Source: a virus (Duplodnaviria; Caudoviricetes). From it: a stretch of DNA of 64,000 nucleotides. Positions 8,448 through 47,866 of this stretch are shown piece after piece. The notes beneath the pieces were generated by a model that was not told the origin of the DNA, did no database searches, and was given only the letters and a program-made list of their open reading frames with translations. The stretch covers positions 32,001-96,000 of the IMG/VR virus record IMGVR_UViG_3300029288_000090, one strand, 5' to 3'. Made by a program: the position numbers and the translations under genes. Each line of letters opens with the position of its first letter. Position 1 is the first letter of the stretch.

Positions 8448-9887
8448 ATGGGATACGTTGTTACGCATGCTCGACGAAACCGTGCAGTAGTTCATCGTAA
8501 AAATAGATTGATTACAACTCCTTCTCCTATGAATAATAAAAGTAGAGACATCAGTGAACTTTATAGTCCTAAGATATGGGAAGGAAAGAGATGTTTTCTA
8601 CTTGCAGGGGGAGATAGTTTAAAAAATTTTAATTACTCTTGTTTAGCAGGGGAACTCACTGTAGGTGTTAATAGAACTTTTGAAACGTTTGAACCTACAG
8701 TCAACTATTCTATGGATGTCAGTTTTTGGAATTGGCTTCATGGTTATAAAGCTAGTGAAGAGGAAGGACGAATTCGTCTCCAGAAGTGGCGGGAATATAG
8801 TGGCATAAAACTTTTTCTTGAAAATCCTGGAAAAGATTTTGGAGTTGGAACGTTTTTTATTAAACGTTTATCTGAAAGAGCTTTGAGTTTAAGTATTAAA
8901 AGAGGAATTTATGGAGGAACGAATTCTGGTTTTGGTGCTCTTTCTTTCATCATAGCTATGGGATGTAAGTTAATTTATCTTCTTGGACTGGATCTTAAAG
9001 TCAATGGAACATCTACACACTGGCATGATGGGTATCCTGGCCAGACCGTTGAGAGGACATCCAGAGTCTTGACTAACTTTCAGAAAGTATTTACTGAATT
9101 TGCTCCTTCTATACAAAGATTAGGAGTCACAGTTGTTAATTTGAATCCTGGATCTGCATTGGATTGTTTTTCCAAAGCGGATCCGTCTTCTATCCTATCT
9201 TGTGCTCATACAGTAGTTCCTTCTTCATCAGGATATGCAGAGATGAGTAAAGTTACAGGATTGTATCCTTCTTCTTTTCCTATTATTACTTCTTTCTATA
9301 CAAAGAATTCTGGTTATGAACTAGAGGCCAAGAAGTTAGCCAGATCATTGAAGGATATGAACCTGGATTACGAGATAGTAGGAATAGTAGATAGAAAAAA
9401 CTGGCAACTAAATATTCGGTACAAACCTGTACTGATTAAAAAGATGTTGGAAAGATACTATCCACGTCCAGTTTTATATGTAGATGCGGATGCTATCTTT
9501 CTTAAATTTCCAGAACTTTTGCGGACGTTAGATGCTGATGTTGCTATTCATACTGTAAAATGGAGTGTATACGGAAGAGATCGGGCGGACGAAATGTTAG
9601 GTGGAACTGTCTATTTTAAGAATACTCCCACAGCAAAAGGAATTTTAGATAAATGGGTTCAATTATGTGAGACAACTCCTTTATCAGTTTGGGATCAAAA
9701 AATACTTCAAGGTATTTTAGGAAATAACTATTATAATCTTCCTCCAGAATATTGTACTATTTTTGATAGTATGGGATCGGTGGTCAAGGAGCCAGTTATA
9801 TTGCATACCCAAGCCAGTAGAAGACTAAAGCAATCTGGAAGACATTTACATACAATTACAAGACCTTCCAGGAGGAGAAAAAATTAA
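8448..9887 (+). CDS. Two-domain glycosyltransferase: DUF115/Maf-like N-domain plus nucleotide-diphospho-sugar transferase C-domain
   Basis: CFLLAGGDSL, VGVN, NSGFGAL...MGCKLIYLLGLD; C-terminal KP....YVDADA, WDQ..LQ, H.QASR. Confidence 0.7.
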   Translation: MGYVVTHARRNRAVVHRKNRLITTPSPMNNKSRDISELYSPKIWEGKRCFLLAGGDSLKNFNYSCLAGELTVGVNRTFETFEPTVNYSMDVSFWNWLHGYKASEEEGRIRLQKWREYSGIKLFLENPGKDFGVGTFFIKRLSERALSLSIKRGIYGGTNSGFGALSFIIAMGCKLIYLLGLDLKVNGTSTHWHDGYPGQTVERTSRVLTNFQKVFTEFAPSIQRLGVTVVNLNPGSALDCFSKADPSSILSCAHTVVPSSSGYAEMSKVTGLYPSSFPIITSFYTKNSGYELEAKKLARSLKDMNLDYEIVGIVDRKNWQLNIRYKPVLIKKMLERYYPRPVLYVDADAIFLKFPELLRTLDADVAIHTVKWSVYGRDRADEMLGGTVYFKNTPTAKGILDKWVQLCETTPLSVWDQKILQGILGNNYYNLPPEYCTIFDSMGSVVKEPVILHTQASRRLKQSGRHLHTITRPSRRRKN

Positions 9888-9906
9888 AACATCTCCACCC
9901 TGATGG

Positions 9907-9953
9907 CCCGAGAGAGGTCGTTGCAACCATCCTGCACACCCTCTCGGGTTTTT
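9907..9953 (+). terminator. Intrinsic terminator of the glycan operon
   Basis: CCCGAGAG...CTCTCGGG stem followed by TTTTT. Confidence 0.65.
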
Positions 9954-9955
9954 AA

Positions 9956-9993
9956 CAAAAAACTGCCTGAAAGAAATGTACAATCAGGCAGTT
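9956..9993 (-). terminator. Intrinsic terminator of the minus-strand block
   Basis: AACTGCCTGA/TCAGGCAGTT stem preceded by an A-run on + strand. Confidence 0.7.
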
Positions 9994-10015
9994 ACGAAGA
10001 GGGAACGTAATGAAG

Positions 10016-10546
10016 TCAAATAGAAGACTTTAATAACGATCTTATTTTCATCTCAATACTTCTTCCATGGGAACTTTTAATGTTTAGTTCTTCTCGAATT
10101 CTTTTTCTTAACGTTGTAAGATTTATTTTAAATACTTCAGAGAAAAGTAATCTCGGATCCAAAAGAAACTTTAAATATTCTTTTTCTATTTGTGTAAGTT
10201 GATCGTCTAACATAAACAATGAAACATCATTTTCTTTTGCAGGAAGAGCTTTATGAAGAATAGTTGTGTCGTTACTATCTAAAGTTTCTTGATTTATCGA
10301 TCGATAAGATTTGTATACTATTCCTCCTAATCTCCTCTTTAAACAGAATTTGAAAAATCCTTCAAAGGAACCTATTTCTTTATTATAACGATCTTGGCAT
10401 GACAAAAATACAATAATCCCTTCATTGAAAAGGTCTTGGAAATCATATATGGTTGGTTTTTTAAGTTTTAAGTAGCAAACCGCAGCATGCGCCTTAATGG
10501 TCTCTATCAACTCTTTTGAAGGCATCCGTTCCTTATAAGATTCCAT
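10016..10546 (-). CDS. Phage sigma70-family RNA polymerase sigma factor
   Basis: Region-2-like DFQDLFNEGIIVFLSCQDRYNKEIGSFEGF; C-terminal HTH-like segment. Confidence 0.7.
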   Translation of the reverse strand: MESYKERMPSKELIETIKAHAAVCYLKLKKPTIYDFQDLFNEGIIVFLSCQDRYNKEIGSFEGFFKFCLKRRLGGIVYKSYRSINQETLDSNDTTILHKALPAKENDVSLFMLDDQLTQIEKEYLKFLLDPRLLFSEVFKINLTTLRKRIREELNIKSSHGRSIEMKIRSLLKSSI

Positions 10547-33563: not shown

Positions 33564-34502
33564 TTATCCGATAACTCTTTCATTTAAGTATTGTGGAAAA
33601 ACAGTTGTCCAAGTCGCTTCTGAACATATACTGGAAGTATACACCAAACGATTTTGTTGCTTATAAGTAGAATCTAAGGCATCTATCAGAAGTTCTTCAT
33701 AATCCTTGGGAATGACGTCTCTTTTCTTACAAAAGGAACGGAGCTTCTTTGCAGCTTTAATAAACTTATTTTGCTCTTTGGAGGAGTTTGCCGTGAACTT
33801 TTTCTTGGATCCTACAAATCTATCTCGGAATAATCGATACAATCTCTCAGCTATATCCAGAATTTCAGGTTCATCACTTTCCAGATCTGTGGAGTCCATC
33901 TCCATTTCTAATCGATCAAATTGAGCCCGCAACTTATTTGTACTTAAAATATTTCTCCTCCAGAAAAGATCTTGTTGGCACCATTCTATGACTTTAGCTA
34001 TTGTTTCGGGATCCCGTTTGTCTCTTCGGATCATTCGATCAATGACCAGAGTCCATTCCTGAAGATTAGGAGTTCTATAATCTGGCTTGTGTTTTTTGAT
34101 TAGATTGAGAAGTCCTTCGGCCAGAATATACTCTGTAGAATCGGGTGCAAACTTTTGAAAAGTCCGCACCCTGGTTTTCCGGCTCACAACTTTTGTAAAA
34201 GTTTGGAGGGCAGAAAAGTCCGCCTCATAACTCCCTAAAAGTTCAGACAATATATTATATTCTTTTATTAATTTAAATTTATTAATAATATTAATTATAT
34301 CACAACTTTTAACTGAAAAGTCCGCACCCTTCATTTCCTGATTAGTAGTGAGTTGTAAGGTCACAGCCTCCACTAAAATTTGAATAGCTATTTTCAGGGT
34401 GCAAACTTCTTGAGTCAGGATGCAAACTTTCTGTTGTAAATCTTCCAGGGTGCAAACTTTTTCTGGAGTCTCAGGACTGTCTATTTCTGATTCGTTAGGC
34501 AT
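33564..34502 (-). CDS. Phage replication initiator (lambda O / replisome-organiser-like)
   Basis: W......M...D.R....I..VI.W...D.FW..NILS..KLR.QFD.L domain; internal iteron-like repeats; upstream of DnaB. Confidence 0.7.
   Translation of the reverse strand: MPNESEIDSPETPEKVCTLEDLQQKVCILTQEVCTLKIAIQILVEAVTLQLTTNQEMKGADFSVKSCDIINIINKFKLIKEYNILSELLGSYEADFSALQTFTKVVSRKTRVRTFQKFAPDSTEYILAEGLLNLIKKHKPDYRTPNLQEWTLVIDRMIRRDKRDPETIAKVIEWCQQDLFWRRNILSTNKLRAQFDRLEMEMDSTDLESDEPEILDIAERLYRLFRDRFVGSKKKFTANSSKEQNKFIKAAKKLRSFCKKRDVIPKDYEELLIDALDSTYKQQNRLVYTSSICSEATWTTVFPQYLNERVIG
34143..34461. repeat. Putative replication origin: >=7 iterons (A)GGGTGCRRACTTT in both orientations around an AT-rich tract (~34247-34300)
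   Basis: Copies at 34143(+), 34158(-), 34213(-), 34316(-), 34396(+), 34417(+), 34447(+). Confidence 0.7.
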
Positions 34503-34669
34503 TTTTTCTTAATTTTATAAGATATTTTTTCTTTTTTGACGTGAATTTGGTTATAGGTACTGTCTATCATGGTATTTATAAAATATTCGTGCCTTCCCGT
34601 TAAATTTATAGAAAAATAAGTATTTTTTTGCTGTTTTCATAAAAATATTCATTTTTTTGTTTCGTGAGT

Positions 34670-34688
34670 AGTATATATTATTATTGTA
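34670..34688 (+). promoter_or_regulatory. Conserved promoter-like motif AGTATATATTATTATTGTA (copy 1)
   Basis: Exact repeat at 35588-35606; 16/18 match at 46842-46859; each precedes a + strand transcription unit. Confidence 0.65.
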
Positions 34689-34751
34689 CGTTTTAAGTTA
34701 TTCTTAGATGAGGTTTTCAAGATGGTTCCTTTGAAAAGTAAATAGAGATAA

Positions 34752-35573
34752 ATAACATTCCGTATATGAAGTAAATTATTTCTTTATGTACGTCAGAATG
34801 TTATGAAGCACAACAAGAAGCCTGTAACTCCTAGGTAATTTAGGCCGCAGGCACATTTTACGGAGACTGGTTATCTCCTCGGATGGTTGAGATGGACATT
34901 AAACTATATACCTGTCTGTTCTTAAGTTGTCCACTAGTGACAACCTTGTTGTGTTCCCGGGTGGCTCTTACTGAGTCCCCGGGTTGTTTACAATAAGGTA
35001 TTAAATCAAATGCCTTTTGTTTTAGGCCCACGGATTACATCAATTCGTAGCAGGTTTAATGCTTTTTAAAATAAGTTCTCGGCGGTGCCAGACTGCGATT
35101 ACCTCTATGCATCGCCGAGACATTACTGCGGAGTAGAGCAGTTGGTAGCTCGTTTGGCTCATAACCAAAAGGTCGCTGGTTCAAGTCCAGCCTCCGCTAG
35201 TAGCTACGTATCGGACCGGTCAACAGCCGATTGTTGACGGAGCCTCAGAAGCTCACGTAGCTATTTGTTCTACTCACGAATTTTGTGGTGTGAGAGTGAG
35301 TAGCTTTGATAAGAATGTCAGCAACGGAAGTTGTGGACGGGCTCCGTGTCCAGCTGAGTAATTACGGAGTAGGTTGTTGATGAATACTAAAATGTTTATC
35401 AATGTAAAACGTCAGTCGCACAGCCGCTGTAATCCTTTGAAGCCTGGTATTCTTTCATTATAGTTCTCTATCGTGCAACTATGCACAACGTCGCTAGTTT
35501 GATAGGATTGCCGGTTGATATTAAGCTGCTAGCACGAAACCGGATGTCAGGAATTAACCTGTTAGAGAACTAT
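34752..35573 (+). ncRNA. Tiled array of ten predicted structured RNA elements surrounding tRNA-Met
   Basis: No ORF >=60 aa; consecutive closed stems with 0-18 nt linkers; G-U pairs favour the + strand. Confidence 0.65.
35127..35199 (+). tRNA. tRNA-Met(CAT), initiator-like; CCA not encoded
   Basis: TGCGGAG/CTCCGCT acceptor, GAGC/GCTC D-stem, TTTGG-CTCATAA-CCAAA anticodon arm, GCTGG-TTCAAGT-CCAGC T-arm. Confidence 0.92.
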
Positions 35574-35587
35574 TTTTATTTGCAGTC

Positions 35588-35606
35588 AGTATATATTATT
35601 ATTGTA
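35588..35606 (+). promoter_or_regulatory. Promoter-like motif AGTATATATTATTATTGTA (copy 2)
   Basis: Exact repeat of 34670-34688, upstream of the QueE/DpdA operon. Confidence 0.65.
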
Positions 35607-36392
35607 AGTCTTTAGTGGAACGTCGGCGTGCTGGGTGCCCAGTACGTCCTCTTGCTTTTAAAATATTATATGATACGAACAGTACAAAGTAAAGAATTGT
35701 GGAAGGTCCAGTTTTGGGCTTATCCTTCTGGAGGAGGCAGAACTTTTTTAGATACTGCAGTTGTTCGAGCAGATTCTAAAGAGTCAGCCATAGAAATTTT
35801 TAATAGTTACAGAAATCTTAGGACTAGTTCTCCACCAGTAGCTAGTAATGTAAATCTCTTAGAAGTCATAGAAGACAGTTAATATGATTACTGACTATTC
35901 AGAAAAAGAATTATTGATGTTACGATCTTTGGGAATTTCTAATATGCTATTTGAAAAGTTATCTATTTTGGATACTTACAAAGCAGCTATTGAGCATGTG
36001 TTTTTGTATAAAAAGACAGGTGCTGCAGTTGACTCTTTGAGGAGATGTTGGCAGGCTATATGTATTTGTAGTTTTCCTAGAAACACAGAAGAATTTGACA
36101 AGTTAATACAATTAGATTTTGTAGAAGAAGAGAAGGGAGTTACAAAAGTTAGTGATAAGCTGTTAGATGAATTCATGGTTTGGATTCATGAAATCATACA
36201 ATATTCTTATGCTCTTAAGATAGCTTTTCATTGTGATGGATTTCCTTTAAAAGTAGTTATAGAGAATCATCCGGAAGTTCTTTGCGGTTGTCCAATAGAA
36301 GATGAAACAATAGATGCATTCGAAAATCAACCTATTCGTTATATAGGAGATCGATTAGTATCTAAACTTTTGTGTGGATGTCCGATATTTAT

Positions 36393-43216: not shown

Positions 43217-46200
43217 ATGGCACAAAAAGCTTTTTTTGTAGACGAAAGAGAACTCCTAGCTATTGAGCAGGAGAAACAAAAACAAGAGAAGAAGAAATTA
43301 TCTAAATCTTCTAGGACCTCCAAAAAGAAGATATATAACTGCTCTACTTGCGGATTAGATAAAACCTGTCGCAGTCCTGATATGCAAAGATATGGAAAAT
43401 GTAGAGCAGGAATTATGTTTGTTGGTATAGCTCCTGGAGCTGAAGAAGATAAAAACGATATTCCTTTTGTAGGACCTTCTGGAGAATTCTTACGTCAGAC
43501 ATTAGTAGATTTAAATATAGATTTAGATGAGGATTGTTCAAGAACTAATATTGTTCGCTGTAAACTTCCAAAGAATAGAAATCCTAAAAGGGACGAAATC
43601 CTGAGCTGTCAATCCAAACTGATTCAAGATATAGAAGAAGTCCGTCCAAGATTGATTATAACGTTGGGAAAAGAACCTACAAACGTTTTGTTTAGATATT
43701 TGGGAAAAGGAACTCCAGGACTTGGTTTGACACATGGATTAGTTTTTCCTATTCAAAAATGGAAGTGTTGGTTATCTAGTACGTTTCATCCAGCAGCTAT
43801 CTTGAGAGAAAGAGATGGTCGTCATCAGAAGGTAGTAGGAAGAGATAAAATATTTGCCTTTGATATAGATGATGCTATATTTTATTCTGAAAGAGAGTTT
43901 CCAAAGATTTTAAGTAGGGAAGGATGTATCCTTGTTCCAGATTCAGAAAGATGTATAGAAGTTTTGGAAAGGATGTCTCAGTCGAAAGATCCTGTTTCGT
44001 TCGATTATGAATGTACCTGTATTTCGGCTTTTGATAAAGATGCTAGGCTACTAACGGTAGGTGTCAGTAATGATCCGGAAATAGGGTATTGTATTCCTAT
44101 TGGAATGAATAGATGGAATGAAGTAGAAGTAGCTCACGTTTACCTGGCTTTGCGTAAATTTTTAGCCAGTGATGCTCCAAAAGTTGTTCAGAACTACAAT
44201 ATGGAGGAGCTTTGGAGTAGGATTCATGTAGGGCAGGGTATGAATAATTTATGCTGTGATACTATGGTAGCTCATCATGTTGTTTACTGTAGAAAGAAAA
44301 CAGCAGATTTGGATTTTCAAGTTGGGCTTTTAACGGGAGATGACTACAAGGGAATGGTAAATACTAAAAGAATGTCAGAGGAACCTATTGAGAAAATAGG
44401 AATATATAATCCTTTAGATTCCAGATACACACTTCTTTCCTACAGAACTAATATAAAGAAGATGGATAGTGGACTTCGTGAATTCAATGATCTTCTGACC
44501 AGGGGTGTTGTTACTATGGCTAATCTAAAAGAACGAGGAGTCAGAATAGATCAACGCTTGCTAAATACGTTAAAGGATAATGCACAGGACGAAGTAAAAG
44601 AACTATCAGATTCTCTTATGCTTTGTAAAGCATGCAGGAAGTATGAAAAAGAAACTGGAAGTGCTTTAAACGTTCGTTCGGGGGATCAATTAGCAAAGCT
44701 CTTATTTACGATCTATGGAGATAAATCTATAAAGACAACAAGCGGAGGAAAACCTTGTACGGATGCAGAAGTTATTGAGAAGCTTTATGCTAAAACGAAA
44801 AAGGAGGAGATTCGAACTTTTCTGAAGATTCTTATAGATCTTAAAAAGGTGCAAAGTTTTTCTGATAAGATAGATAATTTTAGGAAACATATTTGTTCTG
44901 ATGGGAAGATCCATCCTTCATTTCATTTGGATGTCGCAGAGACATACAGGAGTTGTATTGCTGAAGGAACTAATATAGAAGTAGTTAGAGATGTTAATAG
45001 ATATCCTAAAGGTATTCCTATAGAACATGTTAAAGAAGGAGATTATGTTTATTGCTATAATAGTAATTTAGATGTCTGTATTAAAAAAGTTTTATGGGCA
45101 GGAAAAACAGGTCATAAAGAAATTATTCGTCTTCATTGGGAATCTTCTAGAGGAACAAAAGGTTATTTAGACGTAACACCAGAACACAAAGTTAGATTAG
45201 TAGACGGAACTTATCTAGAAGCTAAGTATTTGAACAATAGAAATGTAAGAAGTGGTAAACAAAATAAGCACGTTCCAGGAGTCCAGGTTCTATCACTTGG
45301 GCGAATGGGAGATAATGTTGTACAAACTGGTAAGCATTTTGGTTTGTTGGATCATCGTCTTGTGTATGAAAATGTAAACAATACTATTTTACCCAAACAT
45401 ATGGTTATCCATCATATTGACGGTAATCATTATAATAACGTACCTTCTAATCTTATAGCAAAGGCTAGAAGTGATCATTCACTATTACATTGTACTTTTA
45501 ATGAAGAGAGTAGAAAGAAAGCGTTATCTAATAGAAGAAAAAATGTCGAATTAGGTTTAACTAAATTAGGAAGAACTGGCGAAGAAAACGGGAATTGGAT
45601 TTCGTTTTCTAAATTTTCTTTCTTGCGATTACTTGCTGAACATTCTGGAAAAGTAACGTCTATTGATTTAGAACATGGAACTATACAATCTAAAGCGAAA
45701 CTTTTTTCTATAAATCTTAAAAATGTTAAGGATAGATACACAAAGGAGGGTTACTATATCTCTTTGGGTAAATTAAAGGGATTATATACTAAAGGACATG
45801 ACTATGCTTGTCATGTTCTTCGTGTCAATCCTTATAAATTGCGTAGATTGTATGAACAAAGAGATTTAGAATGGAATACTCCTAGGAAGTGGGCAAATCA
45901 ATATGGAACGTTTAGTGTTAATAATCACAAAATTGTTGACGTTGAGATCTTGAATACTTCTGTCAATGTTTACGATATAGAAGTTGAGGGGGAACATAAT
46001 TTTATAGCAAATGAAATATGTGTACATAACTCATCTTCAGATCCTAATTTTCAAAACGTTCCTAAACACGATGATCTTCTTAAACTAATCAGGGAGTGCA
46101 TTATTCCGAGTCCGGGTAATGTATTCTTGGAGGTTGATTATGACGGATTAGAGGTTCGTGGAATAGCAATGAACTCCAATGACAGAACTCTAATCAATGA

Positions 46201-46819
46201 GATTAAAGGAGGAGACTCTTCTGATACACATCGTTTATGGGCATCTAAGATTTTTGAGGTTCCATTTGCAAAGGTAGATAAGGAGCAACGATTTTTAGGA
46301 AAGAACAAGTTTGTATTTCCTTCTTTTTACGGAGCACAGCCGTTTTCCATTGCTAATTCTCTGAAGATGGAGGAGGCATATATTAAAGGGAAATGGGATG
46401 AATTTTGGAGACTTTACAAAGACGTCAAGAAATGGCAAGATAACGTCAGAGCGTTTTACGAAGAGTATGGGTATATAAGAGGTTTATCAGGATATAGGAG
46501 ATTTGGACCGCTTTCTGTAGAACAGCTATATAATACGCCAGTTCAAGGAATTTCATTCCATCTTGCATTAGATGCTTTAATTAGAATAGATGGGATGTTA
46601 ATAGGAAAGTTAAGACGGCAAGGACTTAGGGCTGTTCCTATTGTTCAAGTTCATGATAGTATTCTCTTTGATTGTCCTATCAATGAGATCCAAGAGGTTG
46701 TAGGAGTTGTCTCTGAAATTATGAAATCCAAACGGTTTGAATGGCAATTAGACGTTCCTCTTAGTGTCAGTTGGGAAAAAGGAGAGGATTGGCTGAATAT
46801 GAAAAAACTTGTAGTATAA
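43217..46819 (+). CDS. polA: Family A DNA polymerase with N-terminal family-4 UDG-like domain, 3'-5' exonuclease and intein
   Basis: C..C.L, GIAPG.EED....PFVG.SG, HPAA.LR; SFDYE; DPNFQN, DYDGLEVR, R...K....FYG, VHDS. Confidence 0.92.
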   Translation: MAQKAFFVDERELLAIEQEKQKQEKKKLSKSSRTSKKKIYNCSTCGLDKTCRSPDMQRYGKCRAGIMFVGIAPGAEEDKNDIPFVGPSGEFLRQTLVDLNIDLDEDCSRTNIVRCKLPKNRNPKRDEILSCQSKLIQDIEEVRPRLIITLGKEPTNVLFRYLGKGTPGLGLTHGLVFPIQKWKCWLSSTFHPAAILRERDGRHQKVVGRDKIFAFDIDDAIFYSEREFPKILSREGCILVPDSERCIEVLERMSQSKDPVSFDYECTCISAFDKDARLLTVGVSNDPEIGYCIPIGMNRWNEVEVAHVYLALRKFLASDAPKVVQNYNMEELWSRIHVGQGMNNLCCDTMVAHHVVYCRKKTADLDFQVGLLTGDDYKGMVNTKRMSEEPIEKIGIYNPLDSRYTLLSYRTNIKKMDSGLREFNDLLTRGVVTMANLKERGVRIDQRLLNTLKDNAQDEVKELSDSLMLCKACRKYEKETGSALNVRSGDQLAKLLFTIYGDKSIKTTSGGKPCTDAEVIEKLYAKTKKEEIRTFLKILIDLKKVQSFSDKIDNFRKHICSDGKIHPSFHLDVAETYRSCIAEGTNIEVVRDVNRYPKGIPIEHVKEGDYVYCYNSNLDVCIKKVLWAGKTGHKEIIRLHWESSRGTKGYLDVTPEHKVRLVDGTYLEAKYLNNRNVRSGKQNKHVPGVQVLSLGRMGDNVVQTGKHFGLLDHRLVYENVNNTILPKHMVIHHIDGNHYNNVPSNLIAKARSDHSLLHCTFNEESRKKALSNRRKNVELGLTKLGRTGEENGNWISFSKFSFLRLLAEHSGKVTSIDLEHGTIQSKAKLFSINLKNVKDRYTKEGYYISLGKLKGLYTKGHDYACHVLRVNPYKLRRLYEQRDLEWNTPRKWANQYGTFSVNNHKIVDVEILNTSVNVYDIEVEGEHNFIANEICVHNSSSDPNFQNVPKHDDLLKLIRECIIPSPGNVFLEVDYDGLEVRGIAMNSNDRTLINEIKGGDSSDTHRLWASKIFEVPFAKVDKEQRFLGKNKFVFPSFYGAQPFSIANSLKMEEAYIKGKWDEFWRLYKDVKKWQDNVRAFYEEYGYIRGLSGYRRFGPLSVEQLYNTPVQGISFHLALDALIRIDGMLIGKLRRQGLRAVPIVQVHDSILFDCPINEIQEVVGVVSEIMKSKRFEWQLDVPLSVSWEKGEDWLNMKKLVV
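44954..46030 (+). mobile_element. Intein (359 aa) containing an HNH endonuclease
   Basis: Starts CIAEGT, block B TPEH, ends VYDIEVEGEHNFIANEICVHN followed by Ser; internal HRLVY...IHHIDGN..NN...NL; splicing restores TYRSSSSDPNFQN. Confidence 0.92.
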
Positions 46820-46841: not shown

Positions 46842-46859
46842 GTATATATTATTTATGTA
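46842..46859 (+). promoter_or_regulatory. Promoter-like motif GTATATATTATTTATGTA (copy 3)
   Basis: 16/18 match to copies 1-2; intergenic, before the clamp loader. Confidence 0.55.
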
Positions 46860-46924: not shown

Positions 46925-47866
46925 ATGTTGTATCAGAAGATTCGACCAACAGAACTAAAAGATATATGTGGTAATGATGCTACAGTAGCTTCTATCACAG
47001 ATATGTTGGAGCAATCTCCTTCCAACCGTCCACATTCTTTTCTTTTGTGTGGTCCAAGTGGATGTGGAAAAACAACACTAGCCAGGATCATGGCTGTTAA
47101 AATGGGATGTGAGGAATTAGGGATTGAAGAGTTAAATGCAGCTAATACACGTGGTATTGATTCAATCCGTCTTATTGCTCAGAATGCAGCAATCAAACCC
47201 CTTACAGGGAAAGCCAAGTGTTATATACTGGATGAGAGTCATCAGTTAACCAGTGCAGCTCAGCAAGCATTACTCAAAGTTATTGAAGATGTTCCTGAAC
47301 ATTGCTACTTTTTCTTCTGCACAACAGAACCGCAGAATCTAATTAAGACAATTAAGAATCGGTGTACAACCTATCAGGTAGAATTTTTGGGGAGAAAAGG
47401 AATTGTTAAAATTCTTCAATCTGCTTTGGAGAAAATAGAAGCAACTAAACCTTTGGATCATTTGGAGGCTATTGCAGCTGTTTGTGAGGGATCTCCAAGA
47501 GCAGCTTTGGTTTTACTAGAACAAATTCTTTTTATAGAAGATGAAGAAACAATTATTGAAATTCTATCTCGAGGGACAAAGGAAGATAGTAATGTTTGGG
47601 AGTTGGTTAATCTTCTTTGCTCTGCTCCCAAAAATAGAAAAAAGAAGTTTAAGAGAGCTTTAGAAATTCATAAAACGTTGGACGCAGATTCTGAACAAGT
47701 AAGACGAACTATTTTATCATGTTTGTTGCAGAAATTAGAGAGTTGTGATGTAGAGGAAGATACAAGAGATTACGTTGAGTTAATTAAAATTTTTAGTCAA
47801 TCTACGTACTATGGAGGTAAAGCACAATTAGGGGGAGAAATTGTGCAAGCCTGTTTTGTGGAATAA
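46925..47866 (+). CDS. Clamp loader AAA+ ATPase (DnaX/RFC-like)
   Basis: LYQKIRP, GPSGCGKTTLAR, ELNAA..RGID, LDESHQLT..AQ.ALLK..E, NRC, GS.R.A. Confidence 0.9.
   Translation: MLYQKIRPTELKDICGNDATVASITDMLEQSPSNRPHSFLLCGPSGCGKTTLARIMAVKMGCEELGIEELNAANTRGIDSIRLIAQNAAIKPLTGKAKCYILDESHQLTSAAQQALLKVIEDVPEHCYFFFCTTEPQNLIKTIKNRCTTYQVEFLGRKGIVKILQSALEKIEATKPLDHLEAIAAVCEGSPRAALVLLEQILFIEDEETIIEILSRGTKEDSNVWELVNLLCSAPKNRKKKFKRALEIHKTLDADSEQVRRTILSCLLQKLESCDVEEDTRDYVELIKIFSQSTYYGGKAQLGGEIVQACFVE

Follow-up and report, generated by a model that had tools for sequence, protein, structure and literature searches.

Structured RNAs of puzzling role recur in the tRNA regions of phages, as in the case of T4 RNAC and RNAD, GOLLD, and ROOL. 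In the myovirus T4, RNAD (species 2) and RNAC (species 1) are structured RNAs of ~120-140 nt that follow a tRNA on the same strand with linkers of only 1-6 nt, downstream of an array of eight tRNAs; the annotated order is tRNA-Arg, 1 nt, RNAD (119 nt), 6 nt, and RNAC (139 nt). Both are expected to be released by tRNA-processing enzymes, and their roles are still unknown (PMC3014915). GOLLD (RF02032) is a phage and prophage RNA of ~800 nt, often found near tRNAs, that consists of a variable 5' region and a conserved 3' region, sometimes with tRNAs in the linker between them; one studied example sits downstream of a Met-tRNA (PMC12286853). ROOL (RF03087) is a large phage-associated RNA near tRNA islands (PMC5737381, PMC12286853). 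Along different lines, the PeSLs of T4-like phages are short repeated promoter/stem-loop motifs located around variable cassettes, whose acquisition and loss they mediate (PMC4122927, PMC2839356).

The tract described here fits this known theme of structured RNAs tied to phage tRNAs, as a new case unrelated to the others. It lies in a 126.5-kb phage with myovirus-type genes (T4-like tail sheath, baseplate wedge, and portal), whose DNA was sampled in landfill and groundwater metagenomes. The window, i.e., the whole stretch of 64,000 nucleotides that was analyzed, corresponds to bases 32001-96000 of an IMG/VR virus record that is 126,556 bp long and carries direct terminal repeats. The DNA is identical (100%) in the JGI, ENA, and Logan assemblies, and contigs from four runs contained zero variants in the flanks of the tRNA; no RNA-seq run containing the tract sequence was found among the listed public runs. 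The tract sits in 34503-35627, the biggest non-coding gap of the whole genome, at a point of strand divergence where genes to the left are on the - strand and genes to the right on the + strand. The features that define this setting are the following:

33564-34502, - strand: DnaD/O-like replication initiator gene, left of the tract
Left of the tract, - strand: genes for a DnaB-like helicase and an SNF2 helicase
34670-34698, + strand: copy 1 of a promoter-like repeat (P1), upstream of the RNA tract
35127-35199, + strand: tRNA-Met (CAU) of initiator type with unencoded CCA (ARAGORN; Rfam 68 bits)
35588-35616, + strand: copy 2 of the promoter-like repeat (P2), ahead of the ORFans and the queE operon
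35617-35658, + strand: terminator-like GC-rich hairpin (35617-35649) with a U-run, directly 3' of P2
Right of the tract, + strand: two ORFans of 70/84 aa and 171 aa, then queE with a 7-deazaguanine module

A sequence-only reading of 34752-35573 had described a non-coding tract, richer in GC than its flanks, tiled end to end by ten structured RNA modules around a tRNA. Its view of coding potential and composition stands. No credible ORF emerges with any of four genetic codes (table 11, table 4, TAG=Q, and TAA=Q) once frames crossing the tRNA are set aside, and the gene callers of two assemblies placed no gene in it. Its GC content is 0.42-0.50, compared to 0.22 on the left (34503-34750), 0.30-0.37 on the right, and 0.365 genome-wide. 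That reading had recognized no tmRNA, RNase P, SRP, or 6S, and a cmscan search of 34450-35700 against Rfam 15 found nothing except the tRNA at 35127-35199, even at E<=10. Neither the Rfam tRNA model nor ARAGORN at 80% stringency detected degenerate tRNAs, and relaxed or mitochondrial settings of ARAGORN yielded nothing but noise. At the right-hand edge of the gap, an 84-aa ORF (GTG 35628) overlaps the hairpin/U-run area at 35617-35671; JGI and ENA both call a 70-aa product there, which implies a start later than the GTG at 35628.

The whole tract (34752-35573) folds better than its dinucleotide shuffles, with z-scores of -5.4 on the + strand and -4.4 on the - strand. In sliding 150-nt windows, the mean z is -2.4 in the tract vs -0.36 in a background of 20 kb of coding sequence (Mann-Whitney p = 4e-5). 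The two strands differ in the way expected by the sequence-only reading, which had noticed many G-U mismatches on the + strand: summed over all modules, there are 26 G-U pairs on the + strand vs 11 on the -, and the module energies add up to -228 vs -186 kcal/mol, making the + strand more stable by 42 kcal/mol. The two halves of the tract, however, behave differently. The ~435 nt upstream of the tRNA, hereafter the leader, comprises six modules and accounts for the strongest signal: 34690-35126 has a z of -5.9 on the + strand vs -4.0 on the -, with minimum free energies of -141 and -112 kcal/mol, respectively. Single-module z-scores were calculated from 200 dinucleotide shuffles, and ensemble probabilities by folding the whole 971-nt transcript. 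The leader modules are as follows:

34752-34804, + strand: module 1, a long A/U-rich hairpin; z -6.5 (+) vs -3.0 (-), pair probability 0.99
34807-34955, + strand: module 2, a five-way junction with a 10-bp closing stem around four hairpins and 8 G-U pairs; z -3.8 to -3.9 (+) vs -2.1 (-), pair probability 0.94
34956-34983, + strand: module 3, a GC-rich hairpin (71% GC); z -4.3, pair probability 0.98
34990-35020, + strand: module 4, a hairpin; z -4.1 (+) vs -1.3 (-), pair probability 0.80
35023-35058, + strand: module 5, a weak hairpin; z -1.6
35077-35120, + strand: module 6, a GC-rich stem of 12 bp that carries a large loop and lies 6 nt ahead of the tRNA; z -4.2 (+) and -4.4 (-), pair probability 0.94

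Five of the six modules thus beat their shuffles singly (z -3.8 to -6.5), namely 34752-34804, 34807-34955, 34956-34983, 34990-35020, and 35077-35120, and only the hairpin proposed at 35023-35058 falls short. In the full-length ensemble, leader modules keep pair probabilities of 0.80-0.99, and no long-range pairing is predicted between the 5' modules and the 3' half, which points to autonomous folding. Given these z-scores, ensemble probabilities, and strand bias, the leader can be read convincingly, at the level of modeled folds, as a + strand RNA structure. No module repeats another, and the one borderline likeness is that of module 5 to the first part of the tRNA (local identity 19/27 with its acceptor/D-arm portion, z 3.2 among 36 comparisons), which makes module 5 a possible relic of a tRNA 5' part.

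The ~385 nt downstream of the tRNA, or trailer, presents a different picture. Region 35200-35585 has a z of only -1.8 on the + strand and -2.2 on the -, and the four modules proposed there have unstable borders:

35201-35263, + strand: module 8, a three-way junction that starts 1 nt after the tRNA; z -2.7 to -2.8 in isolation, closing stem at 0.01 in the full-length ensemble
35270-35303, + strand: module 9, an 8-bp stem with an 18-nt loop; z -2.4 (+) and -5.3 (-), fold lost in the full-length ensemble
35311-35454, + strand: a 144-nt 'domain' with 9 G-U pairs; z -1.4 (+) and +0.3 (-), closing stem probability 0.03, fold not significant
35460-35583, + strand: a 114-nt domain with an 11-bp closing stem and a U-run; z -2.8 to -3.1 (+) and -3.7 (-), closing stem lost in the full-length ensemble

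Since closing stems 3' of the tRNA reach probabilities of just 0.00-0.03 in the full-length ensemble, the end-to-end tiling is limited to the 5' half. Likewise, the excess over shuffles holds for the tract windows and for the leader (z -5.9), not for the 3' half as a whole (z -1.8 on the + strand); the 144-nt domain, in particular, does not fold significantly better than shuffled sequence. The trailer is therefore not established as an RNA structure. The U-run reported at the end of the 114-nt domain is present at 35574-35583, right after 35573, and the domain together with this U-run is a possible end of the unit. Two details of module 8 were noted. By reading the sequence (35210-35231), a junction AUCGG is complementary to a hairpin loop CCGAU, a pairing that would form a possible pseudoknot, and a single base separates the loop of the second hairpin, CUCAGAA, from the tRNA anticodon loop CUCAUAA. 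Overall, a non-coding, structured, + strand RNA around a tRNA and outside Rfam is a description that fits the 5' half well. What had been observed was partly confirmed and its interpretation partly supported; the finding is real, yet weaker and more ordinary than initially proposed.

The tRNA at 35127-35199 is the one identifiable product, called by ARAGORN and scoring 68 bits in Rfam (RF00005 gathering score 29). A mismatch at positions 1:72 and an A11:U24 pair are hallmarks of bacterial initiator tRNA. The phage gene has both, with a U1xU72 mismatch that is non-canonical in the Rfam alignment. Its anticodon stem (UUUGG/CCAAA) includes two G-C pairs rather than the three consecutive G-C pairs typical of initiators, and exactly this stem occurs in the initiator genes of Saccharibacteria. 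The tRNA core is ~93% identical to the initiator tRNA of Candidatus Saccharibacteria/Nanosyncoccus, and a 28-nt segment, from the end of the D-arm to the start of the T-arm, is found unchanged in 69 species genomes, nearly all of them Candidatus Saccharibacteria/Nanosyncoccus. These sequence matches hint that the host of the 126-kb myovirus may be a member of the Saccharibacteria (CPR) or close kin. The cellular counterparts in Saccharibacteria are clear initiators with C1xA72 and an encoded CCA; by comparison, the acceptor stem of the phage gene is different, and its A73 is followed by GUA, without CCA. Two related viral contigs with 19-tRNA arrays, L201 and L202 (IMG/VR 3300020047_009414 and 3300042892_002737), also include a Saccharibacteria-type initiator tRNA, in their case with encoded CCA, and leave gaps of 270-530 nt between some of the tRNAs; they may represent further phages that infect this host group.

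PF01743, the family to which bacterial CCA-adding enzymes belong, is matched neither in the phage genome nor in any of four Saccharibacteria genomes; among genomes of the putative host class, which are incomplete MAGs, 23/151 have a match. With CCA unencoded and such matches confined to 23/151 genomes and missing in the phage, maturation to a chargeable tRNA is therefore not assured, raising the question of whether the phage 'tRNA' is a tRNA at all. RNase P RNA was found in 3/4 of the Saccharibacteria genomes carrying the matching tRNA segment. A 603-aa phage protein encoded outside the window (L015:1059-2870) shows weak similarity to a Pol-beta nucleotidyltransferase motif over residues 357-397. 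It was considered as a CCA-adding enzyme and rejected: in other contigs, its homologues are joined to domains of the lytic transglycosylase, LysM, or cell-wall hydrolase type, and it therefore provides no evidence for a phage CCA-adding enzyme.

The tract is bracketed by a 29-nt direct repeat, P1 and P2, that is 90% identical and has an exact 19-nt core. A third copy is located at 46842 (46842-46859), before a gene at 46925, so that all three copies in the genome (3/3) are intergenic, on the + strand, and ahead of + strand units. The promoter-like motif GTATATTAT-NNN-TGTA precedes the gene at 46925 and, in a relative called G006, the queE gene (L064:5160-5185), and may define a small phage promoter class of the replication/nucleotide-metabolism region. 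The hairpin directly 3' of P2, located ahead of the first ORFan, comprises 10 pairs, 6 of them G-C, in a terminator scan, with a pair probability of 0.96, and the 150-nt window at 35626 has a z of -3.2 on the + strand vs +0.2 on the -. The putative roles of these elements as promoters and terminators are proposed at the level of sequence consensus.

G006, the closest long relative (124 kb, 75% sheath identity), is the only relative covering this site. It has a related motif ~50 nt upstream of queE, and its initiator gene is separated from queE by 155 nt, an interval that contains neither the RNA tract nor the two ORFans. From this spacing, the tract is therefore taken as a lineage-specific insertion. 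In the simplest reading of the two sequences, P2 would be the ancestral promoter of the queE operon, and the RNA unit together with P1 a cassette gained at the motif. The arrangement resembles PeSLs in that a repeat with predicted promoter function brackets a cassette absent from G006, with a U-run before copy 2 and a stem-loop after it. Unlike PeSLs, the repeat has only three copies in the genome, and its motif is unrelated to published PeSLs as far as compared. At a site other than that of the tract, upstream of a clamp gene, G006 has a 107-nt tRNA-like gene (L064:8185-8291; 34 bits with the Rfam tRNA model, not called by ARAGORN) that has an insert within or close to its anticodon/variable region; the ~190 nt that follow this gene are not significantly structured (z +1.25).

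Homologues of the flanks were sought widely. A blastn search (word size 11, E up to 10) with the tract and each flank against 50,697 GenBank phages returned only tRNA matches. Using the initiator, queE, and SNF2 helicase proteins as bait recovered no IMG/VR relatives, and the DnaB route led only to unrelated phages of 40-60 kb without tRNAs. In 39 loci of tail-sheath relatives, searched with the tract DNA and a tRNA model, there was no homologue of the flanks. Among 5.8 billion proteins, the initiator and the 171-aa ORFan gave self or distant matches only, with no homologue for the latter. Exact tRNA-word scans of viral, metagenome, and genome contigs were also carried out. Neither blastn nor nhmmer detected the flanks in 44 metagenome contigs and 69 genomes bearing a near-identical tRNA segment, nor were they found in L201 and L202, two further phages with that tRNA. 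Matches to the flanks in 401 Patescibacteria genomes were at chance level and mostly in the AT-rich promoter part. Similarly, a covariance model of the five-way junction (R1), with the phage's own genome as the positive control, found only itself among 20 viral records and 151 Patescibacteria genomes. Across all databases and genomes searched, there was no homologue of any flank module, with or without compensatory base changes. The tract is thus a singleton, and its weight moderate.

The explanation that we consider best, with a probability of roughly 0.5, is that the tract encodes a polycistronic precursor of the tRNA, with structured flanks that outlast processing as by-product RNAs in the manner of T4 RNAC and RNAD. 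A + strand non-coding transcription unit, extending from ~34690 to ~35585 or ~35660, would have entered the interval that separates the replication-initiator gene from the queE operon, through recombination or duplication at the promoter motif. Its single identifiable product would be the initiator-type tRNA(fMet) contained in the precursor. Host RNase P would cut at the 5' end of the tRNA (35127), and an endonuclease would cut 3' of A73 (35199/35200), with CCA added later. The compact G+C-rich leader modules, and perhaps pieces of the trailer, would then survive as stable small RNAs, the model for their release being the T4 transcript of tRNA-Arg, from which RNAD and RNAC are made. That the unit is transcribed, where it would be cut, how stable its products would be, and what the flanks might do are all inferred. 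The tract resembles T4 in the co-linear placement of modules after the tRNA, with junctions at 35199/35201 and 35263/35270. The likeness does not extend to the folds, as T4 RNAC has a tRNA-like T-arm and no module of the tract does, or to the sequence, as blastn with the tract against GenBank phages gives tRNA matches only. Moreover, the well-supported structure lies mostly upstream of a single tRNA in this phage and downstream of an eight-tRNA array in T4. Should the flank RNAs be stable products, the tract would be a new and unrelated instance of the phage tRNA-region theme, to which it adds a well-folded ~435-nt leader around a single initiator tRNA.

The sequence-only reading had offered a choice between one large RNA and an array of small ones. 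On modeled folds and by analogy, we lean toward the array or precursor, because the 5' modules appear autonomous and T4 provides a precedent. A single ornate RNA of ~0.9 kb that works as a unit, built like GOLLD with 5' and 3' domains joined by a tRNA-shaped linker, and that might form multimers, is decidedly unlikely. Its size, phage origin, and embedded Met-type tRNA do recall GOLLD (PMC12286853), and these shared features (phage-borne, ~800 nt, containing a tRNA) offer context without establishing membership. The tract as a whole has a single promoter-like site on one side and a single terminator-like end on the other, and the absence of CCA would be irrelevant if the tRNA were never released. 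Yet, neither the GOLLD nor the ROOL model (RF02032 and RF03087) is matched in the tract. The former finds nothing in 34450-35700 at E<=10 by cmscan and, genome-wide, returns a single 10.7-bit match outside the tract, against a cut-off of 150; the latter is silent in control genomes too, making it a weak single test. In GOLLD, the conserved part is the 3' domain, and in the tract, the 3' half is the least structured and does not differ significantly from shuffles; the 5' modules fold without predicted pairing to it, and no conserved core can be defined. A bolder version, in which the whole ~0.9-kb transcript forms an ornate phage RNA of a new kind, with a tRNA-shaped center that is never charged, acting as an RNA particle or as a mimic of initiator tRNA that absorbs host factors or toxins, seems very unlikely. 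It draws on the lack of CCA and on most of the searched putative Saccharibacteria hosts seeming to be without a CCA-adding enzyme. If true, it would amount to an independently evolved GOLLD-like solution in a phage of ultra-small CPR bacteria.

The tract could also be read as bait. The sequence-only reading proposed a panel of decoys or mimics, and in its extended form the RNAs, including an unchargeable initiator mimic, would divert nucleases or RNA-sensing defenses, e.g., toxins that cut initiator tRNA. An initiator-type tRNA with an altered acceptor stem and no CCA, a putative host class in which most searched genomes have no match to the CCA-adding family, and the resemblance of the module 8 loop to an initiator anticodon loop are all compatible with this idea. 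We find it highly improbable, as no defense or anti-defense gene adjoins the tract, no family of CRISPR-repeat or antitoxin RNAs is matched, the modules do not repeat one another, and the host assignment on which it builds is itself inferred; for decoys against RNA-guided defenses, there is no support, with CRISPR-repeat and other Rfam matches as well as module repeats absent. That module 8 loop, one base from the anticodon loop, can also be taken, along with the borderline similarity of module 5 to the tRNA, as a trace of decay: the flanks would be functionless or the remnant of a decaying tRNA/small-RNA array, with selection acting on the tRNA only and the helices leftover or incidental. A trailer no better than shuffles, the absence of homologues, and a closest long relative without the tract agree with such a history. 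We regard it as unlikely, in that a leader with a z of -5.9, a + strand bias, and many G-U pairs would be hard to keep without selection, the G+C enrichment runs across the tract despite a 36% GC genome, and the Rfam tRNA model and ARAGORN (80% stringency) reveal no degenerate tRNAs. Finally, the tract adjoins an AT-rich stretch (34503-34750, GC 0.22) and the DnaD-like initiator gene, as would be expected of a DNA-level replication element at an adjacent origin, where the P1 transcript or single-stranded hairpins would take part in activation or priming. Strand-specific, G-U-rich folding points to RNA rather than to duplex or symmetric DNA, G006 keeps the initiator-queE junction without the tract, and the putative transcript is directed away from the origin, all of which renders this role very improbable. 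The polycistronic precursor thus remains our preferred reading.

Two further observations concern other parts of the window. The strongest fold in the scan of the 20-kb background, at 9826-10050 (z -6 to -7 on the + strand), coincides with a convergent junction, in which + strand genes end at 9887 and a - strand gene starts at 10016; it is probably a bidirectional terminator. In addition, the 1200-aa DNA polymerase encoded at 43217-46819 contains an HNH endonuclease-like segment at approximately residues 666-770, between parts of the polymerase, which suggests, from its sequence, a homing element or an intein-like insertion.
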